A DNA stretch of 64,000 bases from Deferrisomatales bacterium. GTDB lineage: Bacteria > Desulfobacterota > Deferrisomatia > Deferrisomatales > JACRMM01. The notes below the pieces were generated by a model. The model was not told the DNA's origin and did no database searches. It worked only from the letters and a program-made list of their open reading frames with translations. The stretch spans positions 1,078 through 65,077 of the forward strand of contig JAWSUI010000018.1 of the NCBI GenBank assembly GCA_033551855.1. Reading direction: 5' to 3'. The position numbers and the translations under genes are program-made. How positions within the stretch are numbered: the stretch's first letter is position 1; each line of letters begins with the position of its first letter. Positions 38,271 to 63,813 of this stretch are shown in pieces.

Positions 38271-38274
38271 CCCG

Positions 38275-48713: not shown

Positions 48714-48926
48714 TCAGCGGCGCAGAAGCCAGACAAGGAGCGAGAGGAGAACGGAGAGGGCTAGGCAGGTCCCCAGGGGAAGGTACAGGGAGAACCCGGG
48801 GCGTCGGATCACCATGTCCCCGGGGAGTCGGCCCGGAAACGGCAGCCTCTCCCCGAAGAGCACGAGCACCCCCGCCAGCGCGACGGCCAGCCCCAGGACG
48901 ATGAGGAGCTTGCCGGCAGGGATCAC
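48714..48926 (-). CDS. DUF2905 family small membrane protein
   Basis: The GTG at 48926 overlaps the queH stop (GTGA). The protein is 70 aa, with GRLPGDMVIRRPGFSLYLPLGTCLALSVLLSLL. Confidence 0.7.
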   Translation of the reverse strand: MIPAGKLLIVLGLAVALAGVLVLFGERLPFPGRLPGDMVIRRPGFSLYLPLGTCLALSVLLSLLVWLLRR

Positions 48927-49471
48927 GGGATCTCGCGGGGCCTGGGGGGGGCGTAGCGCTCCGCCTCGCTGTACAGGCACCCGCAGTAGGTCTGGCGGTA
49001 GAGGCCGAGCTCCTTGGACGCCTCGATCCCCTCGACCCAGCCGTCCCGCCAGTCGCGGTAGAGGAAGGGCACCCCCGCCTCCGCGCCTGCGGCATCCCCG
49101 ATCTCCCGGATCAGGTCGTGCTTCTGCCGCCGGCTGTACAGCAGCGTGGTGCTGAACGCCTCGAACCGCCCCCGGCGCGCCAGCAGGGCCACCCGCCGGA
49201 GCCGTAGGTGGATGCACACCCGGCAGCGCTCCCCCTCCCGGAAGGCCACGCCCCGCAGCCACTCCCGGGGGTCGTACCCCGGGTGGGGCAACAGCCGCAG
49301 GTGCTGCTCCCCGGCGAGCTCCTCCAGCGCCCCCCGGCGGCGGTCCCACTCGGTGTACGGGTGGATGTTGGGGTTCTCGTAGACCCCGAGGACCTCCCGC
49401 CCCTCGGCCCGGAGCCTGCGCAGGGGCACGATGGTGCACGGCCCGCAGCAGGTGTGGAGCAGGGTCTTCAC
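48923..49471 (-). CDS. queH: Epoxyqueuosine reductase QueH (DUF208)
   Basis: Motifs: LLHTCCGPCT, NPNIHPYTEW, ERCRVCIHLRL, FSTTLLYSRRQ, LYRQTYCGCLYSE. Confidence 0.85.
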   Translation of the reverse strand: MKTLLHTCCGPCTIVPLRRLRAEGREVLGVYENPNIHPYTEWDRRRGALEELAGEQHLRLLPHPGYDPREWLRGVAFREGERCRVCIHLRLRRVALLARRGRFEAFSTTLLYSRRQKHDLIREIGDAAGAEAGVPFLYRDWRDGWVEGIEASKELGLYRQTYCGCLYSEAERYAPPRPREIP

Positions 49472-49565
49472 GGGGCGCCTCCCTCACGGATCGCACCCGG
49501 ACCACCAGACCCGCCGCCCCCCACCTGTGGGAGCGGTCTCCCGGCCGCGACCTCGGCCCCCCGGC

Positions 49566-49610
49566 TTCCCTCCCCTTCAAGGGGAGGGCGAGGGTGGGGA
49601 TGGGTTGTCA
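49566..49610 (-). repeat. REP-like element (inverted copy of 43538-43585)
   Basis: TTCCCTCCCCTTCAAGGGGAGGGCGAGGGTGGGGATGGGTTGTCA. Confidence 0.8.
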
Positions 49611-49682
49611 TACAGGGGGAGGAGCAGAGCGGGGGCGGGTGCGGCCCGCATGGATCGCAACGGAGCCCCGCCGCCTCGCGCC

Positions 49683-50210
49683 TCACGGCGACAGGGTCTC
49701 GGCGGCCCGGCGCAGCCCCGGGTGCCCCGACCGCCGCAGGATCTCCCGGCTGAGCTCCCCGACCCGCGCCTCCTCGGCGGACCGGTGCTCCTCCGGTGCG
49801 TGGTAGGGGTGCTCCAGCCGGCAGAAGCGCACCAGGTGCACGTACTCGTGGGTCAGCACGGAGACCAGGACGTCCGAGAGCTCCACGTCTTCCCGGCGGC
49901 GGGCCAGGTGCAGGATGTTGTGGTCCTGGAGGCAGATGCGGTAGTGCGGGCACAGGCGCTCGCAGCGCAGCAGGCGGCCTGCGCCCTCCGGCTCCACCCG
50001 GAACACCCGTCGGATCTCGGCCAGGCGCCCGTCGGTCAGCAGCTCCGCGTCGCGCAGGTCCCGCCGGCTGAGGATCCGGTGCGCGGTGCGCCGAAACCAA
50101 TCGTCCGCCAGGGCGAACCGCTCGCCGGTGAGCTCCTGGGCCAGGGGAACCGCCTCCGCCAGGAGCCGCAGCTCTCGGGGGTCGAAAGCGTCAGGGTGCC
50201 TCACGGGCAT
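49683..50210 (-). CDS. Hypothetical protein with an HExxH motif
   Basis: The protein is 175 aa and contains LTHEYVHLVRF. Its start overlaps the 3' end of the histidine kinase gene by 20 nt; a GTG at 50204 is an alternative start. I did not recognise a family. Confidence 0.45.
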   Translation of the reverse strand: MPVRHPDAFDPRELRLLAEAVPLAQELTGERFALADDWFRRTAHRILSRRDLRDAELLTDGRLAEIRRVFRVEPEGAGRLLRCERLCPHYRICLQDHNILHLARRREDVELSDVLVSVLTHEYVHLVRFCRLEHPYHAPEEHRSAEEARVGELSREILRRSGHPGLRRAAETLSP

Positions 50211-51810
50211 CCTCCGAAGCGACCGGGTCGGCCACGAGCCGATGCAGCGTCCGCACCAGCTCCTTCCGGTCCAGGGGTTTGACCAGGAACGCGTCGGCCC
50301 CCGCCCGCAGGCCCCGCTCCCGGCTGTCCAGGCACGAGACGATGGCCACCGGGATGTTGCGGGTGGCGGGGTCGGCCTTGAGCTCCCGGAGGACCTTCCA
50401 GCCGTCCATCCCCGGCAGGAGCAGGTCCAGGGTGATCGCCGCGGGCCGGGTTTCCCGGGCCAGCCGCAGGCCCTCCTCTCCTCGCGGGGTGAGCACGGAC
50501 GTCATCCCTCCCGCTTCCAGCACCTTCTCGATCAGCTCCAGGGCGGAGGGGTCGTCCTCGATGACCAGGACCCGGGGCCGTGCCCCCGAGATTTCCGCCG
50601 GGCGGGCTCCGTCCATCGGGAGCTCCGGGATCCATAAGCGGAAGCGGCTTCCGGAGCCCGGCTCGCTCTCCACGCCCAGCTCCCCGCCCAGGAGCTCGAT
50701 CAGCATGTGGCACAGGGGCAGCCCCAGCCCCGTCCCCCGGTACTCCCGGGCGTGGGAGGGGTCCGCCTGGAAGAACTTGCTGAAGATGCGCCGCCGGTCC
50801 TCCGGGGAGATGCCGATGCCCGTGTCGGCGACCTCCACCGAGAGACGCCCGGGTTCCTGGCGCACCGAGCACACCACCTTGCCCTCGTCGGTGAACTTGA
50901 CCGCGTTGGCCAGCAGGTTGATGAGGATCTGCTTGACCTTCTCCCGGTCCGACACGAAGGCCCCCACCCCGGCGGCCAGCTCGGTGGAGAGCTCCAACTG
51001 CTTGCGGTAGGCCAGGGGGTTGACCGTGTCCATGGCCTCCGCCACGAGCGCCGCCACGTCGAAGGGCTGTGCCTCCACCTCCATCCGGCCGGCCTCGATG
51101 CGGGTCATGTCCAGGATGTTGTTGATGAGCTTCAGCAGGTAGCGCGACGCCGCCAGGATCCGCTGGAGGTCCTTCTCCTGCTCCCCGGAAACCGTCCCGT
51201 CCACCCCGTCCAGCAGGAGCTCGGTGTACCCGATGATCGAGTTCAGGGGGCTGCGCAGCTCGTGGCTCATGTTGGCGAAGAACTGGCTCTTGAACATCGC
51301 CGCTTCCGCCACCTCGTCGTACTGGCTGCGCAGGCGCCGGTGGGCTTCGGCCAGCTCCATCGAGGTGCGCCGGATCTCCTTCAGGTGGAGGTCCTGGTAG
51401 GTGTCGCTGAACCGGTTGATCGCCTCGTCCACGGTCCGGTCCACGATCTGGAGGGCCTCGACGAGCTCCTCCCCCTCGAAGGCGCCGGCGACGAGGGGGT
51501 GGGTGATCTCCCGGAAGACGGCGAACGCCCGCTGCACCTCGGAGAGGGGAAACTGCAGTGGAAAGCGCTTCTGGGCGATCTCCTGGACGAAGGCCGCCAT
51601 GGGCCCCCAGTCGCCGCTCCCGAGGACGGCCAGGTAGGAGGCCACGGCGCCCTCCGTGGTGGCCTCGAGCTCCTCCGTGGTCCGGGCCTTGTAGTGGGGC
51701 CCCACGTTCTCCCGGAGGATCTCGACAAACTGCCGCCCCAGGTCCTCGCGCACGTCCCGCAGGATCTCGAAGAGCCTCCTCGAGACCGGGGAGACCGGTT
51801 TCCTCACCAT
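50191..51810 (-). CDS. Hybrid sensor histidine kinase/response regulator
   Basis: HisKA H-box: HELRSPLNSIIGY. HATPase N/G boxes: LANAVKFT, DTGIGI, GTGLGL. C-terminal receiver: VLVIEDD...DLLLPGMDG...K. Confidence 0.9.
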   Translation of the reverse strand: MVRKPVSPVSRRLFEILRDVREDLGRQFVEILRENVGPHYKARTTEELEATTEGAVASYLAVLGSGDWGPMAAFVQEIAQKRFPLQFPLSEVQRAFAVFREITHPLVAGAFEGEELVEALQIVDRTVDEAINRFSDTYQDLHLKEIRRTSMELAEAHRRLRSQYDEVAEAAMFKSQFFANMSHELRSPLNSIIGYTELLLDGVDGTVSGEQEKDLQRILAASRYLLKLINNILDMTRIEAGRMEVEAQPFDVAALVAEAMDTVNPLAYRKQLELSTELAAGVGAFVSDREKVKQILINLLANAVKFTDEGKVVCSVRQEPGRLSVEVADTGIGISPEDRRRIFSKFFQADPSHAREYRGTGLGLPLCHMLIELLGGELGVESEPGSGSRFRLWIPELPMDGARPAEISGARPRVLVIEDDPSALELIEKVLEAGGMTSVLTPRGEEGLRLARETRPAAITLDLLLPGMDGWKVLRELKADPATRNIPVAIVSCLDSRERGLRAGADAFLVKPLDRKELVRTLHRLVADPVASEDAREAP

Positions 51811-51876
51811 GGCGTCCCGCCCTCCCGGCCCCCCCGCGACTCCCGTTCCATAGCACGCCGCCGCCCCGCCGTCGAG

Positions 51877-52044
51877 TGGTTGCGGTGGGCGGTGCCCACC
51901 CTACGGGTCCATCGCCGAGATCGGGGGCCCGATGGAAGCCCACACAGATCGAAACGGCACCACTCTTTGTCTTTCCCAGCGCCTCCGCGCCTCTGCGCGA
52001 GAACGCGATGGCTCCTCCCACCCACAGAATACCCGGAAGCTCCC
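51877..52044 (+). repeat. Composite intergenic repeat: module R1 fused to inverted module R3
   Basis: Same organisation as 31729-31895. Confidence 0.8.
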
Positions 52045-52080
52045 GTGCCGTCCCCCCGGGGCAACCCGAGGGCACGCGGC

Positions 52081-53295
52081 TCACTCCCGGTGGTCCGCCT
52101 CCACCGCGGCCCGGACCTCGTCGTAGATCCCCGGCATCGCGGCCTCCACCCGGTTCCAGTTGGGGATCGAGGGGGCCCCCAGGGGATTCTCCAGGAAGTC
52201 GTCCCCCGCCCGCTCCAGGGCGCGGCCGAACCCCTCGGCCAGGGTGTCCTCCCCGTGGCGGTCGTAGGCCAGCCCGTTCAGGGCCGAGAGGTCGGAGAAG
52301 CGCCCGATCGCGTCCTGGGCGCAGCGCAGGTACGCCGCCCGCAGGCTCAGGAAGAAGGAGGTGGAGAGCGTCAACCCCTCGCTCGCCAGGGCCTGGAACA
52401 GGGTGGAGGCGATCTCCCGGCCCATGCGCATCAGACCCGCGGGCTTCGGCGCGTCGAGGCCGGGGTCCTGGTGCTTGTGCTCGTAGTCGATGCCCAGGTC
52501 CGCCTGGCACACCCGGCGGGTGGCGTAGTTTCGGTACACCTCGGCCAGGGTCCCGACCTCCAGCCCCCAGTTCGACGGGATGCGGTTCACCCGGGCCACG
52601 TCCGCGTCCATGCAGAACTCCCCGGCCAAGGGGTACCGGAAGCTGTCCAGGTAGGTCAGGAAGGGGGTGTGGCCCAGCATCTTCCCCAGGGCCCGGAGCA
52701 GGGGCGTGACGAAGATCCGCGTGACCCGGCCGTGGAGCCGGTCCGTCACCCGGGCGTAGTACCCCTTGCAGAACTTGTAGTCCAGCGTCGGGGCCACGAT
52801 CGGGTAGGCGAGGCGCGCCAGCAGCACCCGGTCGTAGGTGAGGATGTCGCAGTCGTGGAGCGCGATCGCCCGCACCGCCTCGTCCCCCAGCACGTACCCG
52901 TACGCCAGCCACGCGGAGAGCCCCTTGCCCGGCTGCCCGAGGTACAGGTTGTTCTCCCGCATGCGGGTCTTGAGCTCCGTCAGCCGCGGGCCATCGACCC
53001 ACAGGATGCGGACCTTCTGGGGCAGCCGCGCGAAGAACTCCCGGGCGTGGGCGAACTCCGCCGGCCCCGCGTCCCCGAGGCTGACCACCACCTCCCGCAG
53101 GTAGGGGATGTGCTGCAGGTGATCCAGGATCGCCGGGAGCGCCTGTCCCTGGAGCTCCGAGTACAGGGACGGGAGCACCAGAGCGAGGGGCCGGTCCTCG
53201 ACGAACCGTACGAGCTCGGCCTCCATCCGGGGCACGTCCCGCGGCCCGAGCTCCTGCAGGGTCGTGATCACGCCGTTCTGAAAGAAATCCGCCAT
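52081..53295 (-). CDS. Glucosyl-3-phosphoglycerate synthase-like glycosyltransferase (compatible-solute synthesis)
   Basis: ATG at 53295 with an AAGGAG Shine-Dalgarno. The MADFFQNGVITTLQEL N-terminus and the HDCDI block fit the GpgS/MpgS-type family as I recall it. It is paired with an MPGP-family phosphatase gene. Confidence 0.65.
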   Translation of the reverse strand: MADFFQNGVITTLQELGPRDVPRMEAELVRFVEDRPLALVLPSLYSELQGQALPAILDHLQHIPYLREVVVSLGDAGPAEFAHAREFFARLPQKVRILWVDGPRLTELKTRMRENNLYLGQPGKGLSAWLAYGYVLGDEAVRAIALHDCDILTYDRVLLARLAYPIVAPTLDYKFCKGYYARVTDRLHGRVTRIFVTPLLRALGKMLGHTPFLTYLDSFRYPLAGEFCMDADVARVNRIPSNWGLEVGTLAEVYRNYATRRVCQADLGIDYEHKHQDPGLDAPKPAGLMRMGREIASTLFQALASEGLTLSTSFFLSLRAAYLRCAQDAIGRFSDLSALNGLAYDRHGEDTLAEGFGRALERAGDDFLENPLGAPSIPNWNRVEAAMPGIYDEVRAAVEADHRE

Positions 53296-53452
53296 CCCAT
53301 CACTCCTTGTCCTCGTCAAAGGCTGTGCGATGTTAAAGGCTGTGCGATGTTTTACGTTAGAAGCGGTTCGACGTTCTCACCCGTCACAACCTTCCCATCC
53401 TCCCGCCAAGGCTCTTCACGTCGAACATCGCACATCGAACGTCGTACGGATC
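53296..53452. repeat. Intercistronic word-repeat hairpin (TGTGCGATGTT / AACATCGCACA arms)
   Basis: GGCTGTGCGATGTTAAAGGCTGTGCGATGTT (53322-53352) faces CGAACATCGCACATCGAACG (about 53421-53440). It lies between the phosphatase and synthase genes. Confidence 0.85.
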
Positions 53453-54295
53453 TCAACATCGAACCGACTCCAACCACTCCAGCACCGCCCGGCACCAGCC
53501 CCGGGGCCCCACCCCCTCCACCGTGCGGACCCCGGGGGGCCGGGGGGTCAGGTGCCCGCCCCCCGGGCGCTCCACGAGCACGCCGTCGCCCGCCTCCCGG
53601 AGCATGGGCAGATCGTTCTCGCTGTCCCCCAGGGCGAGGGAGGCGATCTCACGCCCCCACGTGCGGGCGGCGGCGTCCAGCAGCCACCGCACCGCCCTGC
53701 CCTTGTCCGACGGGCCCACCAGGTGCCAGAACCGGCCGCCCCGGGTGAGGCCCAGGCCCCGCCCGGCGAGCCAAGACCGCGCCTCCTCCACGGAACGAGG
53801 TGCCGGCTCCGGCTCCCAGAGGAACGGCTCGTCGAAGTCCCGCTGCCGGGCCAGCCGGGCCTGCCGCAGGGGAAGGCCGGTGCAGCTCGAAACCTCTGCG
53901 TCGTCCATGTCCCCGAAACCGCGCAGGCCCTGCCCGTACCGGCCCCGGAGCTCCCCCAGGGCCTCCCGGAGCTCGCCGTACGCCGCGCCGAACACCCGGG
54001 CGGGAAGCCCCGCGAAGCGCTCGGGGAAGACCGGTTCCAAGGGCCCGCCGCCCGTGAGGAGCACGGCCCCCCCGTTCTCGGGGATGAAGGGGCCCGTCAG
54101 CCCCAGCCGTCGCTGGAGCCCGAGGATCTCCCCGCGGGTCTTCGACGAGCACAGCACCAGGGGGACGGCCGCCTCCCCCAGCGCGTCCAGCGCCGGCCGC
54201 GCCGGCTCGTAGTCGTAGGTCTCGTGGTCGAGGAGCGTGCCGTCCAGGTCGGTGAACACCAGCCCGGCGGGCCCCCCGGGAATTTGCGGGCACAC
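53453..54295 (-). CDS. HAD-IIB phosphatase of the mannosyl/glucosyl-3-phosphoglycerate phosphatase family
   Basis: GTG at 54295 with a GGAGG Shine-Dalgarno. Motifs: FTDLDGTLLD, LCSSKTR, GDSENDLPML. Confidence 0.75.
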   Translation of the reverse strand: MCPQIPGGPAGLVFTDLDGTLLDHETYDYEPARPALDALGEAAVPLVLCSSKTRGEILGLQRRLGLTGPFIPENGGAVLLTGGGPLEPVFPERFAGLPARVFGAAYGELREALGELRGRYGQGLRGFGDMDDAEVSSCTGLPLRQARLARQRDFDEPFLWEPEPAPRSVEEARSWLAGRGLGLTRGGRFWHLVGPSDKGRAVRWLLDAAARTWGREIASLALGDSENDLPMLREAGDGVLVERPGGGHLTPRPPGVRTVEGVGPRGWCRAVLEWLESVRC

Positions 54296-54473
54296 GGATC
54301 GCCTTCCTCCCCTTCGGGTGCGTCCCTCTATAGCAGTCGTCCCCGCCCCCCGCAAGCCGACCCGGCCCGGCACCCCCCGTCTCACCCCGCTCGGGCCTGA
54401 AGCTGGAAGCCAAGAGCGGGAAGCCGGAAGCGGGGGACAGGCCCCAACTCCCGCCTCCGTTGTCGGGGTTTCA

Positions 54474-54577
54474 CCCCGAACCCCGAACCCCGAACCCCGA
54501 ACATCGAACAGTTGTTCTGCCGTCCTCTATCCTCTGTCCTCCGTCCTCCGTCCTCCGTCTTCCGTCTTCTGTCCTCG
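54474..54577 (+). repeat. Two adjacent heptamer arrays: (CCCCGAA)x4-5 and (GTCCTCC)x8
   Basis: 54474-54501 holds four exact CCCCGAA units. CATCGAACAGTTGTTCTGCC follows. 54522-54577 holds eight GTCCTCC-type units (gtcctct atcctct gtcctcc x3 gtcttcc gtcttct gtcctcg). Confidence 0.9.
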
Positions 54578-54660: not shown

Positions 54661-55773
54661 GTGCGCCCGACCCGAGCCCTCGTCGATCTGACCGCCGTCG
54701 CCCGAAACGTCCGCGCGCTCCGGGGGCTTACCGCCGCGGGTGTGCGCCAGATGGCGGTCGTCAAGGCGGACGCCTACGGCCACGGCGCGGTGCCCGTGGC
54801 CCGGGCGGCCCTCGGCGCGGGCGCCGAGTGGCTGGGGGTCGCTCTCGTGGAGGAGGGGGCGGACTTGCGGCGCGCGGGCATCGAGGCGCCGATCCTGCTG
54901 CTCGGGGCCGCCTTCCCGGAGGAGGCCGCCGACGCGGTGGGCGCCGGGCTCACGGTGGCCGTGTGCGGGCGCGAGACCGCCCTGGCCCTGGACCGGGCGG
55001 GCGCGGCCCAGGGCCGCACCGCGGCGGTGCACGTCAAGGTGGACACCGGCATGGGGCGGCTCGGGGTGCCCCCCGCCGAGGCCGCGGCTTACACGGAGTG
55101 GCTCTCGGGCCTCCCCCACCTCCGCGTCGAGGGGCTGTTCTCCCACTTCTCCGCCGCCGACGAGGCCGACCTCTCCTTCAGCCGCGCCCAGCTCGAGGAG
55201 CTCTTGGGGGTCCGGCAGGCCTTGGCCGCCCGCGGGCTGCGCCCCCCCCTCTGCCACATCGCGAACACCGCGGCCGTCATGGCCCTGCCCGAGAGCCACC
55301 TGGACCTGGTCCGGACGGGGATCGGTATCTACGGGCTCCACCCCTCCCCCGAGACCCCCCGCACCGCCGACCTGGAACCGGCCTTGCGCCTGACCACGCG
55401 CGTCGCCCACGTGAAGGACGTCCCCGCCGGCACCCCCCTCTCTTACGGCCGCACCTTCGTCGCCCGGCAGCCCAGCCGCATCGCCACCCTGCCGGTGGGC
55501 TACGGCGACGGGTACCCGCGCCTGCTCTCCAACCGGGGACAGGTCCTCATCGGCGGCCGCGCGGTCCCCATCGTCGGCCGCGTCTGCATGGACCTGATCC
55601 TCGCGGACGCGACCTCCGTTCCGGAAGCCCGCGTGGGCGACGAGGCCGTGCTGATCGGCCCCCAGGGCGACGCCTCCATCGGCGCGGACGAACTGGCCCG
55701 CCTCGTCGGCACCATCCACTACGAGATCACCTGCAACATCGGCAAGCGCGTGCCAAGGGAGTACAGAGGTTAG
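54661..55773 (+). CDS. alr: Alanine racemase
   Basis: GTG at 54661. PLP-Lys motif: AVVKADAYGHG. The GYGDGYPR block is present. The protein is 370 aa; the upstream part of the 437-aa track ORF crosses the heptamer arrays. Confidence 0.9.
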   Translation: MRPTRALVDLTAVARNVRALRGLTAAGVRQMAVVKADAYGHGAVPVARAALGAGAEWLGVALVEEGADLRRAGIEAPILLLGAAFPEEAADAVGAGLTVAVCGRETALALDRAGAAQGRTAAVHVKVDTGMGRLGVPPAEAAAYTEWLSGLPHLRVEGLFSHFSAADEADLSFSRAQLEELLGVRQALAARGLRPPLCHIANTAAVMALPESHLDLVRTGIGIYGLHPSPETPRTADLEPALRLTTRVAHVKDVPAGTPLSYGRTFVARQPSRIATLPVGYGDGYPRLLSNRGQVLIGGRAVPIVGRVCMDLILADATSVPEARVGDEAVLIGPQGDASIGADELARLVGTIHYEITCNIGKRVPREYRG

Positions 55774-55906
55774 GAGCTGTTCGAGGTTATTGGGTCCTCC
55801 GGACCGCGCGCTTGCGTCCGCACGCACATCGTCCTATCATCCGCCGGCCGCGGGTGACCGGGGATTTCCCCCCTCTTCCCCACCTGCACAGCAACGGAGG
55901 GTTCCC

Positions 55907-57073
55907 ATGCGAAGCGCACGGCTGGCCGCACTGTCCTTCGTCCTCGCCCTGGGGCTCGCCGGGCCTGCCCTGGCCCAGGACGTCATCAAGATCGGCTTCG
56001 TGATCCCCCTCACCGGAGACATCCCCAAGGTAGGCGAGGCCTCCAAGTTCGCGGCCGAGATGCTCCGGGAGGACGTCAACGGCCAGGGAGGCCTCGAGGT
56101 CGGGGGCAAGAAGTACCGCCTGGACTTCCTCTACCAGGACAACGAGTCCAAGGCCGAGTCGGCGGTCACGACCGCCCTGAAGCTGATCGAGCAGGACCGG
56201 GTTCTGGCGCTCGTCGGCCCCCAGTCCTCCAAGCAGGCCGTCCCCGCGGGCCAGGTGGCCGACGACAACGAGACGCCGATGATCTCCCCCTGGTCCACGA
56301 ACCCCGACACCACCGCGGACCGACCCTGGGTCTTCCGGGCGGCCTTCCTCGACCCCTTCCAGGGGCCGGTGGCCGTGGACTTCGCCACCAAGACCTTCGG
56401 GGCCAAGAAGGCCGCGGTGCTCTTCGACCTCTCCAACGACTACTCCAAGGGGCTCGCAGAGATCTTCAAGGCCGACTTCGAGAAGAAGCAAGGCGCGGGG
56501 TCCGTGGTCGCGTTCGAGACCCACGGCACCAAGGACCAGGACTTCAGCGCCCAGCTCACCAAGATCATCGCGGCCCGGCCCGACTTCCTCTTCGTCCCCA
56601 ACAACTACAACCAGGTGGCCCTCATCGTCCCCCAGGCGCGCAACCTCGGGTACCAGGGTCCGTTCATGGGCTCCGACGCCTGGGGCTCCGCCGAGCTCAT
56701 GACCCTGTGCGGCGACGCCTGCAAGGGCCAGTACTTCTCCACCCACTACGCGGCGGCGGGGGCCACCGGGGCGACCAAGGATTTCATCGAACGGTACCGC
56801 ACCAAGTACGGCTACGTGCCGGACGACGTGGCGGCGCTCACCTGGGACGCCACCCGCTTGGTGCTCCAGGCGATCCAGGAGACCAAGGGCCTCACGGGCA
56901 ACCTGAAGCGCGACCGCAAGGCCGTCCGCGACGCCATGGCGGGGATCGCGGAATTCGACGGGATCACGGGCAAGATGCGCTTCGACGCCGAGGGCGACCC
57001 CATCAAGTGCGCGGTGGTGGTGAGGATCACCGACACCGGCGAGTTCGCCTTCACCGAGTCGGTCTGTCCGTAG
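55907..57073 (+). CDS. Branched-chain amino acid ABC transporter substrate-binding protein (LivJ/K-like)
   Basis: ATG at 55907 with a GGAGGG Shine-Dalgarno. Signal peptide: MRSARLAALSFVLALGLAGPALA. Type I periplasmic binding fold start: IKIGFVIPLTGD. Confidence 0.85.
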   Translation: MRSARLAALSFVLALGLAGPALAQDVIKIGFVIPLTGDIPKVGEASKFAAEMLREDVNGQGGLEVGGKKYRLDFLYQDNESKAESAVTTALKLIEQDRVLALVGPQSSKQAVPAGQVADDNETPMISPWSTNPDTTADRPWVFRAAFLDPFQGPVAVDFATKTFGAKKAAVLFDLSNDYSKGLAEIFKADFEKKQGAGSVVAFETHGTKDQDFSAQLTKIIAARPDFLFVPNNYNQVALIVPQARNLGYQGPFMGSDAWGSAELMTLCGDACKGQYFSTHYAAAGATGATKDFIERYRTKYGYVPDDVAALTWDATRLVLQAIQETKGLTGNLKRDRKAVRDAMAGIAEFDGITGKMRFDAEGDPIKCAVVVRITDTGEFAFTESVCP

Positions 57074-57220
57074 GCCCGGGAACGGACCGCAGAGGAACAA
57101 AGGCGTGGAGACGCCCCCACGACGGCTGTCGGGCGGGTGTCTCCGCGTCCTCCGCGCCCTCCGCGTCTCCGCGGTTCCATCGTCCCGTCGACGCCGCGCC
57201 GCACCGAAGGGAAACGGCCC

Positions 57221-58144
57221 GTGTTCGAGCTCCTGATCCAGAACCTCCTGAACGCCCTCCAGTGGGGCAGCTTCTACGCCCTCATCGCCCTGGGCTACAG
57301 CCTGGTGTACGGGGTGCTGCTGCTCATCAACTTCGCCCACGGCGACGTCTTCATGGTGGGCGCCTACATCGCGTTCTTCGTGGCCACCTTCTTCCTGGGC
57401 TCCTTCGGGGTCATCCCGGGGCTGCCCGGCTGGGCTGTGCTCGCCGCGACGATCCCCCTCACCATGGTCCTCACGGCCTGCGTCGGGGTCTCCCTGGAGC
57501 GGATCGCCTACCGGCCCCTGCGGCGCAAGGGGGCCAACCGGCTCTACGTCGTCATCACGGCCCTCATGTGCGGGCTGATCCTCGAAAACGGCAACCTCGC
57601 CCTCCTGGGCGCGAGCCGCCGGCGCTTCCCGCCACTGGTCGAGGAGACCGTCTACACGGTGGGCGGGGTCAGCTTCACCAACCTGCGCCTCGCGGTCATC
57701 GTGGCGGCGATAGCGGTCTTCGCGCTCCTGCACACCGTCGTCACCCGGACCAAGATCGGCATGGCCATGCGGGCCATCTCCTACGACAAGTTCGCCGTGC
57801 CGCTCATGGGCATCCCCATCGATACCGTCATCGTGTTCACCTTCGTGCTGGGGTCCTCCATGGCCGGCCTGGCGGGCATCCTGTTCGCCATGTCCTACCC
57901 GGTGCTCGACCCGTACATGGGGGCGCTGATCGGCTGGAAGGCCTTCATCGCCGCGGTGGTCGGCGGCATCGGCGACATCCGCGGGGCCTTCCTCGGCGGC
58001 TTCCTCCTGGGGGCCGTGGAGATCATGGTGGTGGCCTTCTTCCCCTCCACCTTCCGGGACCTGCTGGCCTTCACCATCCTGCTCGCCATCCTCTCCATCA
58101 AGCCCACCGGCCTCTTCGGCGTGGCGAAGACGACGAAGATCTGA
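57221..58144 (+). CDS. livH: Branched-chain amino acid ABC transporter permease (LivH-type)
   Basis: GTG at 57221. Sequence: LLNALQWGSFYALIALGYSLVYGVLLLINFAHGDVFMVGAY. Confidence 0.85.
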   Translation: MFELLIQNLLNALQWGSFYALIALGYSLVYGVLLLINFAHGDVFMVGAYIAFFVATFFLGSFGVIPGLPGWAVLAATIPLTMVLTACVGVSLERIAYRPLRRKGANRLYVVITALMCGLILENGNLALLGASRRRFPPLVEETVYTVGGVSFTNLRLAVIVAAIAVFALLHTVVTRTKIGMAMRAISYDKFAVPLMGIPIDTVIVFTFVLGSSMAGLAGILFAMSYPVLDPYMGALIGWKAFIAAVVGGIGDIRGAFLGGFLLGAVEIMVVAFFPSTFRDLLAFTILLAILSIKPTGLFGVAKTTKI

Positions 58145-58398
58145 GGACGGGGGACGGGGGACGGGGGGAGAATGCGTTTGATTGGTTCCATTGGTCCCAT
58201 TGGTCCTATTGGTCCTATTGGTCCTATTGGTCCCATGGGCCCGGCAGTCGGCCCGATGGGTGAGACCGGTTCGCCGCATCAAACCAATCAACCCAATCAA
58301 ACGAATTGAACCAATATAACGAAACCCCCCACACCGAACACCGAACATCGAACAGGTTCTCAAACATCGAACAGGTCCTAAAACGTCGAACAGCCCCT
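58145..58398. repeat. Intercistronic word-repeat hairpin between livH and livM
   Basis: In order: (GACGGGG)x3, CGTTTGATTGG plus (yATTGGTCC)x6, a GC-rich loop, AAACCAATCAACCCAATCAAACG (58281-58303), then CCGAACA/TCGAACA words running up to the livM ATG. Confidence 0.9.
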
Positions 58399-59412
58399 AT
58401 GAAACACCTCTCCACCCCCGCCGCCCTGGCCGCGATCCTCGCGGTGCTGGTCTTCCTCGCCCACACCGGCGCGATGGACCAGTACACCCAGACCGTGCTC
58501 ATGTTCATGGGGGTGAACATCATCCTGGCGGCGAGCCTCAACCTCGTGAACGGCTACATGGGCGAGTTCTCCTGCGGCCACGGGGGCTTCATGGCGGTGG
58601 GGGCCTACGTCTCCTCCGTGCTCACGGTGCTGCTCTTCACCTCCGACCGGGTCTTCGGCGCGCCGCTCCTGCCCCCGGGCTGGGCCTTGTTCGGCTTTCC
58701 GCTGGTCCTGCTCGTCGGCGGCGCCGCGGCCGCGGTGGCCGGGCTGGTGGTGGCGATCCCGTCGTTTCGCACCCGGGGCGACTACCTGGCCATCATCACT
58801 CTCGCGGCCAACTACATCTTCATCAGCGCCATCGAGAACATGGACACCATCGGGGGTCCCCGGGGCTTCATGGGCATGCGGCGGGTGGTCAATACCATGG
58901 GAGAGACCCTGGGGCTCCCGTGGATGCTCATCTGGGTCTTCGTCTTCACGGTAGGCACGATCTGGGTGCTGCGGCGCTTCGTCTACTCCACCTACGGGCG
59001 GGGGGTCTCGGCCGTCGCCCAGGACGAAGTGGCGGCCGAGATCATGAGCGTCAACACCAACAAGATGAAGATGATCGCCTTCATGCTCTCCTCCGGGCTG
59101 GCCGGCATCGCCGGGGGGCTCTTCGGCCACATCGTGGGCTACGTCAACCCGGGCTCCTTCACCATCCTCAAGTCCACCGAGGTCCTCGTGATGGTGTACC
59201 TGGGGGGCATGGGCTCCCTGAGCGGCTCGGTGATGTCCGCCATCCTCTTCACCCTGCTCCTCGAGGCCCTGCGGCCCCTGCAGATCATCAAGTGGATCGT
59301 GGTCCCCCTGCTCCTGATCGTGCTCATGCAGTTCCGGCCCGAGGGGATCCTGGGCAACCGCGAGTTCTCCGACGTCTTCCCGCGCCTGCGGCGCCTGTAC
59401 AGCTTCAAGTAG
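58399..59412 (+). CDS. livM: Branched-chain amino acid ABC transporter permease (LivM-type)
   Basis: ATG at 58399. Sequence: GVNIILAASLNLVNGYMGEFSCGHGGFMAVGAY and GDYLAIITLA. Confidence 0.85.
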   Translation: MKHLSTPAALAAILAVLVFLAHTGAMDQYTQTVLMFMGVNIILAASLNLVNGYMGEFSCGHGGFMAVGAYVSSVLTVLLFTSDRVFGAPLLPPGWALFGFPLVLLVGGAAAAVAGLVVAIPSFRTRGDYLAIITLAANYIFISAIENMDTIGGPRGFMGMRRVVNTMGETLGLPWMLIWVFVFTVGTIWVLRRFVYSTYGRGVSAVAQDEVAAEIMSVNTNKMKMIAFMLSSGLAGIAGGLFGHIVGYVNPGSFTILKSTEVLVMVYLGGMGSLSGSVMSAILFTLLLEALRPLQIIKWIVVPLLLIVLMQFRPEGILGNREFSDVFPRLRRLYSFK

Positions 59413-59599
59413 CGCGCGGAAGAGGCGTGGGACGGGATGCCAGGATGGACGGGATGAACAGGATCGGCAGGATGGGGGAACGCCCGTCGGAACCCCCCCC
59501 GCGGATCGAGGCGCGCGCCGGGGCGGCTTCCGGACCACCCCGTGAAGGGGGTCATCCCGTCCATCCCGTCATCCCGTCCAAGACCCCCTGAACGAGCCC
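59413..59599. repeat. Intercistronic word-repeat hairpin (GGGACGGGATG / CATCCCGTCC arms) between livM and livG
   Basis: GGGACGGGATGCCAGGATGGACGGGATGAACAGGATCGGCAGGATGG (59431-59477) faces GGTCATCCCGTCCATCCCGTCATCCCGTCC (59550-59579). Confidence 0.9.
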
Positions 59600-60367
59600 A
59601 TGCCCACCCTCGAGATCCGTGGCCTCACCCACTACTTCGGCGGCCTGTGCGCGCTCTCGAACCTCGACCTCGCGGTGGAGGAGGGGCAGCTCTTCGGGCT
59701 CATCGGCCCCAACGGCGCCGGCAAGACAACCGTCTTCAACCTGGTGAGCGGGTTCTACCGCCCCACCCAAGGCGAGGTGCTCTTCCAGGGCCGGAGCACG
59801 GCGGGCCTCAAGCCCCACCAGGTCACCGCCCTCGGCATCGCCCGCACCTTCCAGAACATCCGGCTCTGGAAGGACATGACGGTGCTCGACAACATCCGCA
59901 TCTCCCAGCACCACCGGCTCGGGTACGGGCTCCTCGACACCCTGCTGCGCACCCGCCGCTACGACCGCCGGGAGCGGGAGCTCGAGGAGTACGCCCGGGG
60001 GCTCCTCGAGGTGATGAAGCTCTCCGCCGTCGCCGCCGAGCTCCCCAAGAACCTCCCCTACGGGCTCCAGCGCAAGGTGGAGCTGGCCCGGGCCCTCTCG
60101 GTCCAGCCCCGGCTCCTCCTCCTGGACGAGCCCGCCGCCGGCCTCAACAGCTCCGACGTCGAGGAGCTCATCCGCCTGGTCCAGTGGATCCGCAAGGAGT
60201 TCGACGTCACCATCTGGATGATCGAGCACCACATGGACGTCGTCATGGAGCTGTGCTCCCGCATCACGGTCATCGACTTCGGGCAGACCATCGCCGAGGG
60301 GACCCCGGAGGAGATCCAGAGCAACCCGGCCGTCATCGAGGCCTATCTCGGGAACGCAGAGATCTGA
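59600..60367 (+). CDS. livG: Branched-chain amino acid ABC transporter ATP-binding protein (LivG-type)
   Basis: Walker A: GPNGAGKTT. Signature variant: LPYGLQRKVELARAL. Walker B: LLLLDEPAAGL. Confidence 0.9.
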   Translation: MPTLEIRGLTHYFGGLCALSNLDLAVEEGQLFGLIGPNGAGKTTVFNLVSGFYRPTQGEVLFQGRSTAGLKPHQVTALGIARTFQNIRLWKDMTVLDNIRISQHHRLGYGLLDTLLRTRRYDRRERELEEYARGLLEVMKLSAVAAELPKNLPYGLQRKVELARALSVQPRLLLLDEPAAGLNSSDVEELIRLVQWIRKEFDVTIWMIEHHMDVVMELCSRITVIDFGQTIAEGTPEEIQSNPAVIEAYLGNAEI

Positions 60368-61092
60368 TGCTCTCCGTCGAGAACCTGCGGGTAAGATACG
60401 GGGCGGTCGAAGCCCTCCACGGCATCTCCTTCCACGTGGAGGAGGGGGAGATCGTCACCCTCATCGGCGCCAACGGCGCGGGCAAGAGCACCACGCTCCT
60501 GAGCATCTGCCGCATCCCGCCCCCCGACGGCCCCCGGGTGGTCGAGGGCGAGATCCGGCTGCGGGGCAAGAGCCTCCTGCGCACCGAGGCCCACCGGGTC
60601 GCGGCCGAGCACAAGACCGCCCTCGTGCCCGAGGGGCGCCGGATCTTCGGCAACCTCACCGTGCGGGAGAACCTCGAGTTGGCCACCTACGCCCGGAGGG
60701 GGGACCCCCGGGTGCCCCGGGACTACGAGCGGGTCTTCGAGCTCTTCCCCCGGCTCGCGGAGCGCGCCAGGCAGCGCAGCGAGTCCCTGAGCGGGGGCGA
60801 GCAGCAGATGCTCGCCGTGGGCCGGGCGCTCATGTCCGGGTGCACCTTCCTGCTCCTCGACGAGCCCTCCATGGGCCTGTCGCCGCTGCTCAAGTACGAG
60901 CTCTTCCGCAACCTGAAGCGCCTGAACCGGGAGGACGGGATGACGATCCTCCTCGTGGAGCAGAACGCCAACCTGGCGCTGCACCTGGCTCACCGCGGCT
61001 ACGTCCTCGACACCGGCGACATCGTCGCCCAAGGCACGAGCGAAGACCTCCTGGGCAACCCGGAGGTCAAGAAGGCGTATCTGGGGGGGTAG
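60367..61092 (+). CDS. livF: Branched-chain amino acid ABC transporter ATP-binding protein (LivF-type)
   Basis: The ATG at 60367 overlaps the livG stop (TGATG). Motifs: GANGAGKST, LSGGEQQMLAVGRAL, LLLDEPSMGL. Confidence 0.9.
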   Translation: MLSVENLRVRYGAVEALHGISFHVEEGEIVTLIGANGAGKSTTLLSICRIPPPDGPRVVEGEIRLRGKSLLRTEAHRVAAEHKTALVPEGRRIFGNLTVRENLELATYARRGDPRVPRDYERVFELFPRLAERARQRSESLSGGEQQMLAVGRALMSGCTFLLLDEPSMGLSPLLKYELFRNLKRLNREDGMTILLVEQNANLALHLAHRGYVLDTGDIVAQGTSEDLLGNPEVKKAYLGG

Positions 61093-62347
61093 GGCGGAGG
61101 AGGTCCGGCTCGAAGCACAGGGTGGCGAAGTGGTCCTCCACCGTCTCGGCGCGGCGGATGCGCTCCACCGAGCCGTCGGGCCGCAGCAGGAGCTCCTGGG
61201 GGCGCAGGCGCCCGTTGTAGGTGAACCCCATGGCGTGGCCGTGGGCGCCGGTGTCGTGGATCACCACCAGGTCCCCCTCGTCGATCCGGGGCAGCGGCCG
61301 CTGCACCGCGAACTTGTCGTTGTTCTCGCACAGGCTCCCCACCACGTCCACCACCGTGTCGGCGGGCGCGCCCTCCTTGCCGTGCACGGTCACGTGGTGG
61401 TAGGCGCCGTACATCCCCGGCCGCATCAGCGCCGACATGCACGCGTCCACCCCCACGTACTCCCTGTAGATGTGCTTGTGATTGATGGCCCGGGTCACGA
61501 GCACCCCGTGGGGGCCGGTCATGAACCGGCCGCTCTCCATGAAGAGCCGGGGCACGTAGCCCTCCTCCGCCTCGAACTGCACCAGGAGCGACGCGACCTC
61601 CCGGCCCATCCACTCCAGGCTCAGGGGGCTCTGGTCCGGGCGGTAGGGGATCCCCAGCCCTCCCCCCATGTTGAGGAAATCGAACCGAAAACCAAGGGCA
61701 CCGGTCACCAGGCGCGCCACCGAGAGCAGCATGAGCACCGTGTCCACCATGTACTCGGCGTTGAGCTCGTTCGAGCACACCATGGTGTGCAGCCCGAAGC
61801 GCACGGCGCCCCGGTCCCGGGCCTGCCGGTACGCGTCCACGATCTGGTCGTGGGCCACCCCGTACTTCGACTCCTCCGGGTGGCCGATGATGCGGTTCCC
61901 CGTGCGCCGCGGGCCGGGGTTGTACCGGAAGCTCACGAGCTCGGGCATCCGGGGCACTTTGGCGACGAAGCTGATGTCGTCGAGGTTCAGGATCGAGCCC
62001 CCGTCGGCCAGGGCCGCCTCGAACTCCTCCCGGGTCGTGTCGTTCGAGGTGAACATGATCTCCTCGCCCCGGGCGCCCACCCGGCGGCTGAGGAGCAGCT
62101 CCGGGATCGAGCTGCAGTCGAACCCGAACCCCATGTCGCGCATGACGGCCAGGATCGCGGGGTTGGGCAGGGCCTTGACCGCGTAGAACTCCTGGAAGCC
62201 CTTCACGCCGGCGAACGCCCGGCGCAGCTCCGCGCCGGTGCGGCGGATGCCGACCTCGTCGTAGAGGTGGAACGGCGTGCCGAAGTGCTCGGCCGCGGCT
62301 CGCAGCACCGGGGCCGCGCGGTCCTGGAAGTCGCGGGACATGGGCAT
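61067..62347 (-). CDS. PLP-dependent group IV decarboxylase (diaminopimelate decarboxylase family)
   Basis: The ATG at 62347 follows GAGGTG. PLP-Lys region: FYAVKALPN. Also GFDCSS, GGGLGIPY, and VVGSLCENNDKF. The 3' end overlaps convergent livF by 26 nt. Confidence 0.75.
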   Translation of the reverse strand: MPMSRDFQDRAAPVLRAAAEHFGTPFHLYDEVGIRRTGAELRRAFAGVKGFQEFYAVKALPNPAILAVMRDMGFGFDCSSIPELLLSRRVGARGEEIMFTSNDTTREEFEAALADGGSILNLDDISFVAKVPRMPELVSFRYNPGPRRTGNRIIGHPEESKYGVAHDQIVDAYRQARDRGAVRFGLHTMVCSNELNAEYMVDTVLMLLSVARLVTGALGFRFDFLNMGGGLGIPYRPDQSPLSLEWMGREVASLLVQFEAEEGYVPRLFMESGRFMTGPHGVLVTRAINHKHIYREYVGVDACMSALMRPGMYGAYHHVTVHGKEGAPADTVVDVVGSLCENNDKFAVQRPLPRIDEGDLVVIHDTGAHGHAMGFTYNGRLRPQELLLRPDGSVERIRRAETVEDHFATLCFEPDLLRPTPPDTPS

Positions 62348-62499
62348 CGGGTCCACCTCTGTTGGGGTGTGGCGCAGGGGCGCGGCGGTGGAGGATAAAA
62401 CAGCCCTTGCCGGCCGCGCAAAGAAAAGCCGCGAGCCGGGGCCGCCTCTCGGCCGGGGAGGCGCCCGGTCGGGCGCTCGTCAGTCCGGGGTTTCCGGGG

Positions 62500-62648
62500 G
62501 GCCCTTCCGGAAACTCAGTGGGTCAACCAAGGGCAAGAACGATCTCGCGCCGAGCCGCTGGGGCGTGGAGCAGTTCTTTGTCGTTCCCGGCGCCTCCGCG
62601 GCTCCGCGCGAGAACCCGATGGTCCCTCGCGCCCACGGTACCGGAGGA
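62500..62648 (-). repeat. MITE-like intergenic element, copy D
   Basis: Reverse-complement alignment to 13004-13159. One end is slightly shortened. Confidence 0.75.
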
Positions 62649-62652
62649 CCAA

Positions 62653-62694
62653 ACCTCGAACCTCGAACCTCGAACCTCGCACATCGAACCGAAC
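62653..62694 (+). repeat. Heptamer array (ACCTCGA)x3 plus variants, abutting the tyrA stop
   Basis: The units read acctcga acctcga acctcga acctcgc acatcga accgaac. This is the same CGAAC word family as 40994-41029 and 54474-54510. Confidence 0.85.
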
Positions 62695-63813
62695 CTAAAA
62701 CCTCTCCACCAGCTTCTCGATCAGGTAGCTCGACTCCCGCATCGCCTGGTCGCCGAAGGGGCCGAACCACGAGGCCACCCGCCGGAACTCCGCGCAGAAC
62801 CCCTCCTTGTCCCCGGCCTCCACCATCGCCAGGTTCTGCGCCACGCTCTCCAGGTAGCCGCGCAGCAGCTCGCGGCGCTCCGGGGTCGCGAAGAGGATCT
62901 CCGCGTACAGGGCCGGGTCCTGGGCGAAGAGCCGCCCCACCATCCCCAGCTCCAGCCGGTAGATGGGGCTCGAGAACTCCAGGGTCCGGGCCAGGGGCAC
63001 CCCCTGGCGGCACAGGAACTGCCCGAAGGCGAAGGTGGCGAAGTGCCGAAGGGCCTGCACCACCCCCATCACCTCGTCGTGCTCCTCGGCCGTGGCCTCC
63101 ACCAGCACCGCCCCCCAGGCGGCGAGCTGGTCGAGCACCCACCGGCACGCCGGCTCGTCCCGCCCCGGGGTCACCACCACGATCTGCTGGTCCATGGTGG
63201 CGGTGGTCGGCCCGAACATGGGGTGCAGGCCCACCACCGGCCCCGGGTGGGCCCGGAGCATCGCGTCCAGGGGGGCCGCCTTCACGCTCGTGATGTCGGC
63301 CAGCACGCACTCCGGCGGCAGGTGCGGACCCAGGCGGGCCGCGGCGTCGGCCGTGGCGTCGATGGGCACCGCGAGCACCGCCAGGTCCGCCCCCGCGGCG
63401 AGCTCCGCCACGCGGTCCCAGTCCTCCCGCTCCAGCACCCGCACCTCGTAGCCCGCGGTGCGAAACCACCCGTGGAGCCCCCGGCCCATGCTCCCCCCGC
63501 CCCCCACCAGGAGCACCACGGCCCCGGGCCGGACCCCGCGCACCGCCAAAGACCGGGACTGGGCCACCCGCGAAGACCGCAGGAGGCGCCGGAACACGTC
63601 CTCCACCAGGTCCGGGTCGAGGCCCGCCCGGCGCCCCTGCTCCCGGCGGCGAGAGATCAGGTCCTCCTCCCGGGCCGGGTGGTACAGGGGCAGACCCCGG
63701 GCGCCCTTGAGCTCCGCCACCTGGGCCACCAGGTCCCTCCGCGCGGCCAACAGCTCCACCAGCCGCGCGTCCACCGCGTCGATCCGCCCCCGCAGCCCCT
63801 CCAGCTCGTCCAT
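62695..63813 (-). CDS. tyrA: Bifunctional chorismate mutase / prephenate dehydrogenase
   Basis: ATG at 63813. CM_2-type N-terminus: LRGRIDAVDARLVELLAARRDLVAQVAELK. Rossmann motif: VLLVGGGGSMG. The prephenate dehydrogenase body follows: HPMFGP, VVTPGR. Confidence 0.85.
   Translation of the reverse strand: MDELEGLRGRIDAVDARLVELLAARRDLVAQVAELKGARGLPLYHPAREEDLISRRREQGRRAGLDPDLVEDVFRRLLRSSRVAQSRSLAVRGVRPGAVVLLVGGGGSMGRGLHGWFRTAGYEVRVLEREDWDRVAELAAGADLAVLAVPIDATADAAARLGPHLPPECVLADITSVKAAPLDAMLRAHPGPVVGLHPMFGPTTATMDQQIVVVTPGRDEPACRWVLDQLAAWGAVLVEATAEEHDEVMGVVQALRHFATFAFGQFLCRQGVPLARTLEFSSPIYRLELGMVGRLFAQDPALYAEILFATPERRELLRGYLESVAQNLAMVEAGDKEGFCAEFRRVASWFGPFGDQAMRESSYLIEKLVERF

Follow-up and report, generated by a model that had tools for sequence, protein, structure and literature searches.

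Why a long gap filled with short repeats should lie between two permease genes of one transporter operon, and run almost to the start codon of the second, is the question raised by a 64-kb window of bacterial DNA (the whole stretch of 64,000 nucleotides analyzed here). Pfam matches on its plus strand place livK (55907-57073), livH (57221-58144, with the stop codon TGA at 58142-58144), livM (58399-59412, BPD_transp_2, 337 amino acids [aa]), livG (59600-60367), and livF (60364-61092) in the gene order of an operon. The gap between livH and livM measures 254 bp, and the repeats begin at the base right after the livH stop. A first-pass annotation of the sequence had proposed that this gap carries the composite element of the trp operon and had hinted at a translational role of its CGAACA-type words at livM. 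The data obtained here support another answer. The spacer is very probably a young, mobile or expandable repeat mosaic and, as judged from the same spacer in relatives, is not a conserved liv control element. Overall, the locus is probably best explained as a species-specific intergenic repeat mosaic in which only those orientations have persisted that keep leaders rich in C and A and free of structure.

Three dispersed modules, termed here W1, W2, and W3, make up the spacer, which is a mosaic and not a single element. W1 is an array of heptamers, (GGACGGG)x3.3 at 58145-58167, that is G-rich on the sense strand and was reported by Tandem Repeats Finder (TRF) with 100% matches. W2, at 58170-58308, is a predicted hairpin of ~135 nt composed of inverted 9-mer arrays (TTGATTGGN / NCCAATCAA) with conserved termini of 21 to 25 nt. 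Its left arm (AATGCGTTTGATTGGTTCCATTGGT, 58171-58195) holds the 11-mer CGTTTGATTGG at 58175-58185, and its right arm (58283-58307) holds the exact complement, CCAATCAAACG, at 58293-58303; with at most one mismatch, CGTTTGATTGG has four matches in the window, against 0.26 expected from shuffles. The G/T-rich 9-mer array ATTGGTCCY x6.2 (58181-58236, TRF 93% matches) leads into a central GC palindrome at the hairpin tip (CCCATGGGCC-CGGCAGTC-GGCCCGATGGG, 58232-58260), and a CCAAT 9-mer array (NCCAATCAA x4.2) with an A/T-rich tail occupies 58278-58323. W3, at 58331-58393, is C/A-rich and consists of CCGAACA/TCGAACA heptamers x3.4 and then the 19-mer AACATCGAACAGGTYCTMA x2.6, the last word ending 5 nt before the livM ATG (58399). 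Across the window, the heptamer YCGAACA was counted 30 times, where 10.8 occurrences were expected. The parts that the first-pass annotation had listed, namely a 254-bp gap inside an ATP-binding cassette (ABC) transporter operon, three G-rich heptamers after the livH stop, the 9-mer array, the central GC palindrome, the 11-bp pair, and CGAACA words up to the livM ATG, are thereby all accounted for. The spacer was also found in two independent public assemblies of the same species and is therefore not an assembly artifact.

All three modules recur elsewhere in the window. At least 10 spacers in the 64 kb carry such arrays, including three in the trp operon and three in the liv operon; all arrays lie between genes defined by G+C content at third codon positions (GC3), and they have no coding capacity. 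The trp operon lies on the minus strand and comprises, by Pfam, trpE (41859-43544), trpG (41036-41608), trpD (39680-40741), trpC, trpF (38275-38892), and trpB (36870-38090). W2 is present in three copies, in the livH-livM, trpE-trpG, and trpG-trpD spacers, which in alignment share the ends GACGGGGGAC...CGTTTGATT and AACCAATCAACCCAAT(C/G)AAAC and have unrelated interiors. The arms of these copies are complementary over 21 nt at 100% in trpE-trpG, 25 nt at 84% in liv, and 12 nt at 92% in trpG-trpD. The trpE-trpG spacer (41609-41858, minus strand, arms at 41687-41707 and 41805-41825) is a second W1+W2 copy and reads, on the minus strand, TGA, CGGGGGAC..(GGAGGAC)x3, CGTTTGATTGG arrays, loop, CCAAT arrays, A/T-rich tail, ATG. 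GGACGG-type heptamers, CGTTTGATTGG, and AACCAATCAACCCAATCAAAC stand in one order relative to transcription in this spacer and in that of liv. The proposed identity with the trp element thus extends to W1 plus W2, in trpE-trpG, but not to W3, which is a separate dispersed block. The trpG-trpD spacer (40742-41035) holds the third and more diverged W2 copy, oriented opposite to that of trpE-trpG and flanked by CCGTCC words and by CGAACC/CGAACA words.

With up to three mismatches, the W3 15-mer AACATCGAACAGCCC gave 17 matches in the window, against 1.06 expected, and blocks of 38 to 65 nt homologous to W3 lie at 13171, 38191, 40995, 53432, and 54493. Eight intergenic matches, at four loci, lie in the sense orientation upstream of a start codon, and seven, at five loci (13179-13226, 38231, 41001, 53455, and 55774), lie antisense and adjoin a stop. 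W3 arrays are inverted in the trpF-trpB spacer (38091-38274, minus strand), where the sense strand carries TGTTCGA-type words after the trpF stop and then 17-mers CACATCGAACAGCCCTT, GGAGG, and the trpB ATG, and again at 53296-53452 (minus strand), where, on the sense strand, the 17-mer AACATCGCACAGCCTTT x2 precedes AAGGAG and ATG. W1-type arrays were found at 7872, 40772, 41827, 46695/46724, 54520, and 59430/59551. They include a perfect W1 palindrome between divergent genes, (GAGGACG)x3 / (GTCCTCC)x3 at 46695-46746. The livM-livG spacer consists of inverted arrays on the plus strand (GGACGGGATG.. / CATCCCGTC.., 59430-59580), a spacer between divergent genes at 54395-54576 holds GCCGGAA-type words, (CCCGAAC)x4 + CGAACA, and (CCGTCCT)x8 in that order, and an (AACCTCG)x5.6 array at 62648-62704 adjoins the stop of a minus-strand chorismate mutase / prephenate dehydrogenase gene and is G-rich on the sense strand of that gene. 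The order of modules varies, being W1-W2-W3 in liv, W1-W2 only in trpE-trpG, W1'-W2-W3 in trpG-trpD, and W4-W3-W1'-W2' at the 3' end of livF in another assembly of the species (L001); their orientation also differs between loci.

Some smaller features of these arrays were also noted. In the 46695-46746 palindrome, one arm resembles a Shine-Dalgarno (SD) sequence and the other an anti-SD sequence. The CGAACA arrays at 54500-54522 and 38238-38259 end in a common GAAC-N4-GTTC palindrome, CGAAC(A/G)GTTGTTCTGCC, which lies inside a common 65-nt block and is like a Cheo-type LexA box in form only. A word array also occurs in coding DNA: the 5' part of trpB contains (CGGGTA)x4.5 at 38049-38075, which translates to (Tyr-Pro)x4 close to the N terminus.

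The arrays vary between strains. Two assemblies of the window species, L001 and L002, are ~99.6% identical to it, and the strain comparison covers 54.5 to 63.9 kb of the window; exact-protein look-ups with TrpG, TrpC, and an 851-aa protein returned no further contigs. The GGACGGG unit of W1 is present in three copies in the window, four in L001, and two in L002, giving livH-livM spacers of 254, 261, and 247 bp, respectively. Unit swaps between strains are confined to the left 9-mer array, and apart from the heptamer number the spacer is otherwise identical. Of the 28 substitutions in L002, 15 fall in just two arrays, together ~2% of the aligned length; six L002 substitutions lie in the (CCGTCCT)x8 array of the 54395-54576 spacer. 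After livF, L001 (5519-5760) carries a composite of ~250 bp built from the same vocabulary of words, (GGTTCGG)x4, the 17-mer TAACATCGAACAGCCCC x6, CCGTCC words, and (CCAATCAAC)x5, that is missing from the window at 61067-61092. There, the 3' ends of livF and of a convergent ornithine/diaminopimelate (Orn/DAP) decarboxylase gene overlap by 26 bp, and the decarboxylase has 429 aa, against 420. Because a relative with 87% LivM identity (L013) has a 94-bp gap after livF and a 419-aa decarboxylase, the window allele probably arose by a deletion that removed the ends of both genes. Logan short-read contigs of this species, covering 37.5 to 57.5 kb, end or are mis-joined at the arrays, which accounts for the fragmentation of public metagenome-assembled genomes (MAGs) of this lineage at such spacers. 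False joins through the arrays connect 41829 to 54536 and 38173 to 54473.

The nearest named LivM homologues among the matches listed were those of Deferrisoma palaeochoriense and Desulfuromonas versatilis, and the window sequence was met only in volcano, geothermal-soil, and hot-spring metagenomes; on both grounds, the source is taken to be an uncultured relative of Deferrisoma. The window itself contains no 16S rRNA gene. Among relatives, the livH-livM spacer differs in both length and content. It measures 25 bp in D. versatilis (76% LivM identity) and 30 bp in the MAG L076 (80%). In L013 (87%) it measures 56 bp and contains (GACGGGT)x3.7, and in D. palaeochoriense (L014, 77 to 81%) it reaches ~103 bp with AACGTCCN octamers. 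L016 to L018 (93%) have a spacer of 240 bp made of wholly different words (GGTGAYC, CCTCAGC, and CTCCATGCT). In BLAST searches of the relatives' loci compared, W2 and W3 had matches in the window species alone, W3 being absent from the orthologous spacer in every relative examined. The hairpin array between livM and livG is likewise absent in the relatives with 93% and 87% LivM identity, which have a 54-bp spacer there. The mosaic is thus young, species specific, and unstable, and it is not a conserved liv regulator. Octamer words fill spacers in D. palaeochoriense (L014 5561-5660, 6456-6572, and 9898-9981) and in two related MAGs (L075 and L076). In these Deferrisoma-type spacers, GGACGTTR arrays start at the stop codon or overlap it, with TAG in each unit, and are followed by C-rich octamers (CCAGCCTY, GCCGCCTA) and then an SD.

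Wider searches gave no further copies. An exact-pattern scan with CCAATCAACCCAATCAAAC of 185,579 species genomes, among which the source species is not included, gave 10 unrelated single hits, about the number expected by chance. The 56 matches of CCAATCAACCCAATSAAAC in JGI metagenome contigs were all unrelated simple repeats or chance matches that lacked the inverted partner. BLAST searches with the spacer returned nothing from plasmids and only a 52-nt simple-repeat match from phages.

The spacer belongs to a known but poorly understood kind of sequence, the dispersed intergenic repeat mosaic. All four features tested were found: recurrence at multiple sites, varied order and orientation, extragenic and non-coding position, and species specificity with variation between strains. 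The nearest likeness is to the multicopy nucleotide sequences of Geobacter metallireducens and G. bemidjiensis, as compared by the descriptions in the passages concerned and not by sequence. These are described as species-specific intergenic palindromes and direct repeats of 6 to 42 nt, including families of four or five tandem heptanucleotides or octanucleotides, some as inverted pairs, and often occur with several families per spacer, inside ABC-transporter operons, with function unknown (PMC2700814, PMC2996986). The host lineages are related through the Deferrisoma and Desulfuromonas homologues among the matches listed. The words differ: GGACGGG, TTGATTGGN, and TCGAACA in the window, against GGACCGG, GTTGCTYN, and MTYCTGA in the Geobacter passages. 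Stop/start polarity (described below) and copy-number differences between strains are not reported in those passages.

Other families share parts of this architecture. In Escherichia coli, repetitive extragenic palindromic (REP) sequences and bacterial interspersed mosaic elements (BIMEs) are extragenic, often between the genes of an operon or at 3' ends (malEFG, hisJQMP), and BIMEs are imperfect palindromes mosaicked with other short motifs, transcribed, and folded into hairpins. The window mosaic is similar in being extragenic, intra-operonic, and made of palindromes combined with short motifs. The REP unit, however, is a single palindrome of ~35 nt with one genome-wide consensus and a dedicated REP-associated tyrosine transposase (RAYT), whereas the window contains tandem words of 7 to 9 nt; no RAYT was found among the 25 open reading frames (ORFs) of the window that were scanned. 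The BOX elements of Streptococcus pneumoniae (boxA-boxB(n)-boxC, with variable middle copies) are intergenic, non-coding, predicted to fold, and variable between strains. The likeness lies in the modular build, the variable tandem copies, the intergenic position, the predicted folding, the lack of coding capacity, and the differences between strains, but BOX order is fixed and its modules measure 45 to 59 nt, unlike the varying order and orientation and the 7- to 9-nt words seen here. Cyanobacterial short tandemly repeated repetitive (STRR) sequences are tandem heptanucleotide arrays that are dispersed, intergenic, and lineage specific, with function unknown; they share the dispersed intergenic heptamer arrays with the window but differ in phylum and base composition, and we know of no description of STRRs as inverted pairs bracketing a spacer or with stop/start polarity. 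Terminal inverted repeats, as in miniature inverted-repeat transposable elements, are present in all three W2 copies, but no direct repeat that could be a target-site duplication flanks any of the three, and the spacers of relatives are rearranged rather than empty.

The effect of the mosaic on livM was examined through the initiation region. The livM start was confirmed by alignment of homologues, which measure 330 to 358 aa among the 120 matches listed (most of them 337 to 343 aa and covering the full query) and align their N termini at one column with the first residue of the window protein; the start codon assumed in the first-pass annotation thus stands. The absence of an SD also held, with no GGAG, GAGG, or AGGA within the 20 nt upstream, as did the placement of CGAACA words over the ribosome-binding region. 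An obvious SD, by a crude measure, precedes only 22 of the 46 gene starts in the window. The 95-nt leader (58304-58398, plus strand; A37 C32 G13 T13, C/G = 2.5) taken with the first 22 nt of livM (58304-58420) has a predicted folding energy of −5.1 kcal/mol (z = +2.03) and an unpaired centroid and folds less well than 196 of 200 shuffles. From −80 to +20, livM is the least structured of the 46 starts, at −5.1 kcal/mol against ~−37 kcal/mol for a typical one, and the unpaired probability over −25 to −1 is 0.74 in the ensemble of the full spacer. By these folding models, livM has an SD-less, structure-free initiation region. mRNAs without an SD are translated where the initiation region is unstructured, as in the S1/standby-site models, and livM resembles them in lacking an SD and in being exceptionally open by prediction, a resemblance in workings and not in family membership.

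Upstream of this open region, the W2 hairpin (58170-58308) is predicted to fold at a minimum free energy of −54.7 kcal/mol (z = −3.68), and none of 200 shuffles reaches this stability. The opposite strand folds equally well, at −56.6 kcal/mol, and the whole livH-livM spacer is not special (z = −0.26). The livM-livG hairpin reaches −86 kcal/mol (z = −2.5), and the 46695-46746 palindrome reaches −44.1 kcal/mol (z = −5.9).

Across loci, the base composition of the arrays appeared to follow the gene ends that they adjoin. Each array in the window and in L001, L013, L014, and L016 was assigned to its nearest gene end. Among arrays adjoining a stop codon, 17 of 19 have more G than C on the sense strand of that gene, and among those adjoining a start, 16 of 18 have more C than G (Fisher p = 1.7e-6 for the contrast, in counts that lack independence, since both arms of a palindrome are entered). 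Per tandem spacer, 9 of 10 run from G-rich to C-rich (p = 0.02). The polarity holds in tandem, divergent (46.7 kb and 54.4 kb), and convergent (the L001 insert) gene pairs, and it is kept in the window species, L013, L016, the Deferrisoma-type L014 and L075, and L076. The Deferrisoma octamers obey it as well, with GGACGTTR at or over the stop and C-rich arrays before the SD. A C-first arrangement of the palindromes is equally possible, yet none was seen. An autocorrelation at lag 7 over all non-coding DNA gave only a weak bump, swamped by unannotated coding sequence. Given this dependence between arms and the small sample, the polarity is treated here as a lead and not as a result.

As to origin, the modules very probably spread and combine independently, as E. 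coli BIME or pneumococcal BOX motifs do, the arrays grow and shrink by slippage, and the spacer is a recent inflation of an ancestrally short one (~25 to 56 bp). A tentative mechanism that could join these observations is an open leader combined with a filter on orientation. The spacer would most likely be co-transcribed with the operon, and the W2 hairpin would fold directly downstream of livH. Since W3 is nearly all C and A and cannot pair with itself, the livM initiation region would be left single-stranded, and LivM could be translated by de novo, SD-independent initiation on the open leader. Purifying selection on orientation may remove copies that place a G/U-rich, foldable, or SD-like strand before a start, and copies would persist inside operons only with the non-folding C/A-rich strand beside the start codon.

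Several points weigh against this mechanism and the overall explanation that includes it. The evidence comes from a 64-kb window of one genome and short pieces of relatives' loci, and the array counts are small and interdependent, as stated above. The comparison of GC skew between leaders and trailers of all genes, with or without arrays, is marginal (p = 0.05). In other spacers, the C/A-rich arm is predicted to be paired with the G-rich arm and so is not open, and the trpG leader has a local predicted hairpin over its AUG (z = −1.8). Sense and antisense folds of the palindromes show no consistent difference; since they fold equally on both strands, there is no sign of selection on RNA pairing itself. 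Neither a transposase nor a target-site duplication was found for the modules, a search for RNA runs that include the locus gave none, and co-transcription, hairpin folding, and SD-less initiation are all steps that we infer. As a separate candidate, coupling by ribosome unmasking, in which the G-rich arm by the stop pairs with the leader, was rejected as a general mechanism: when the 15 nt after the stop were masked in the computation, the livM and livG initiation regions were not opened, and that of trpB was opened only slightly.

The hairpins themselves suggest an alternative, in which the spacer acts as an adaptive, REP-type RNA device. Its hairpin would block 3'-5' decay, mark a site of processing, or terminate transcription in part, the C-rich leader would load Rho, and livKH would be expressed differently from livMGF. 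Stable hairpins are predicted after both livH (z = −3.7) and livM (z = −2.5), and the 95-nt leader, with its C/G of 2.5, has the unstructured, C-rich composition expected of a Rho utilization (rut) site. REP elements in the malE-malF and hisJ-hisQ spacers of E. coli act in this way in ABC-transporter operons. LivH and LivM, however, are two halves of one permease with no known need for unequal amounts, the hairpin folds no better on the sense strand than on the antisense strand and differs from one strain to another, and any tuning by an element missing from close relatives is not conserved. No intrinsic terminator (GC stem plus U-tract) was found on the plus strand in 55700-61200, where the W2 hairpin is followed by AAUUGAACC and not by a U-tract. 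A scan of the same interval for sigma-70 promoters (−35 and −10 boxes 16 to 18 bp apart), which covers that promoter type only, also gave none, and no Rfam family matched the spacer at the gathering score in a whole-window scan or at E ≤ 1 within 57900-59700. A device of this type is considered unlikely.

Decidedly unlikely, in turn, is a role of the arrays at the DNA level, as sites for a nucleoid-associated protein or global regulator with a regulatory or architectural function. The words are tandem, with fixed 7-, 8-, or 9-bp periods, palindromic 4-bp cores (TCGA, ACGT), and inverted pairs, and their strand-symmetric folding fits a DNA-level feature. Similar arrays in Geobacter have been read as putative sites for integration host factor (IHF), HU, or a global regulator, which in the passage concerned is a proposal only (PMC2700814). 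By eye, the W2 words contained no match to the IHF consensus. Against this role, the word content at the same spacer changes from species to species and even from locus to locus, so that one conserved binding protein would need fast co-evolution, and copy number is free to vary between strains. The stop/start polarity is moreover a transcript-level property that a symmetric DNA-binding array does not predict.

The translational role hinted at in the first-pass annotation would, in its specific form, make the CGAACA-type words themselves a signal, recognized by the ribosome as a substitute for the SD or as a translational enhancer for livM. The words do reach to 5 nt before the SD-less livM start, sense copies also lie upstream of trpB and of the gene starting at 53295, and in D. 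palaeochoriense related words, AACGTCC, precede livM in the sense orientation. As a start-codon-specific signal, however, the words fail, since about half of the intergenic copies in the window are antisense and adjoin stops. Both trpB and the gene that starts at 53295 have a regular SD, GGAGG or AAGGAG, between the words and the ATG. Upstream of livM, the relatives with 93%, 87%, 80%, and 76% LivM identity lack CGAACA words. A word-specific ribosome-binding substitute is thus very improbable, and what survives of the proposed translational role is a plausible generic effect of an unfoldable, C/A-rich, G-poor leader. Finally, a collagen-like coding function for the 9-mer array (a 45-codon ORF, the only one in the spacer, at 58172-58309 in the livH frame, MRLIGS(IGP)4.., with an ATG at 58172 directly after GGGGGGAGA, a 9-bp period that keeps the frame, three differences between the window and L001 on third codon positions, and a weak Pfam Collagen match at E = 0.0027) is scarcely credible and was rejected on codon usage (third positions T-rich, against a genome GC3 of >0.9), on conservation (Pro-to-Ser and Pro-to-Leu unit swaps in L002, and a trp copy with no ATG and a stop after 12 codons), and on the Pfam cut-off (score 17.9, below 27.2), the purine tract moreover abutting the ATG, too close for normal SD spacing.

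Beyond the word arrays, the window has a G+C content of 71% and is ~19% non-coding by rough gene calls. Nearly all 4-kb bins show negative GC skew, the plus strand being C-rich throughout, and the window on this account lies within one replichore arm. A second dispersed family, unrelated to the first, consists of intergenic copies of 100 to 145 nt with 74 to 92% identity in both orientations, located at 13014-13158, 15758-15902, 20269-20439, 31727-31892, 43825-44001, 51875-52048, and 62494-62637; its presence shows that intergenic repeats in general abound in this genome. At 31647-31728, in a 604-bp divergent intergenic region, lies a perfect 43-bp tandem duplication of AGAGGGGGGGACGTAAGTGAAATCGTGCGTTTCCCCCAGGACC, and a dispersed palindromic element, GACAACCCATCCCCACCC..CCCCTTGAAGGGGAGGG, occurs at 43539-43583, 49566-49610, and 9966-10001, two of the copies being 98% complementary. 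A tRNA gene at 26082-26154 is followed by a match to the int-alpA RNA (26549-26617, minus strand) and an ORF at 26488-27591 (minus strand) with an integrase Arm-DNA-binding domain only; the region from 26082 to 27591 resembles the margin or the remains of an integrated element.

Taken alone, the locus is ordinary: a repeat mosaic that came by chance to lie inside an operon. It nevertheless shows that, where operons of this thermophilic, uncultured lineage have long, odd gaps, these stem from invasion by repeats and are not missed genes or conserved regulators. The strain differences in copy number and in presence or absence are natural markers, and the spacer amounts to a natural experiment on how an operon tolerates an untranslated insert of 200 to 300 nt between genes whose products are needed 1:1. 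A broader rule is speculative and rather doubtful: Deferrisoma-like bacteria as a lineage may build their spacers from word arrays under transcript-level selection, with 3' trailers kept G-rich and 5' leaders C/A-rich, the leader arrays serving as ribosome standby platforms. If that were true, such platforms would let ribosomes start efficiently without an SD in a genome of 71% G+C, a leading G-rich arm would keep Rho-loading sequence inside operons from being exposed, and the repeats would form an unrecognized, evolvable class of translation-initiation and operon-insulation elements instead of junk. Should the polarity prove to be genome wide, it would offer a handle on translation starts and operon continuity in GC-rich bacteria, in which many genes are SD-less.

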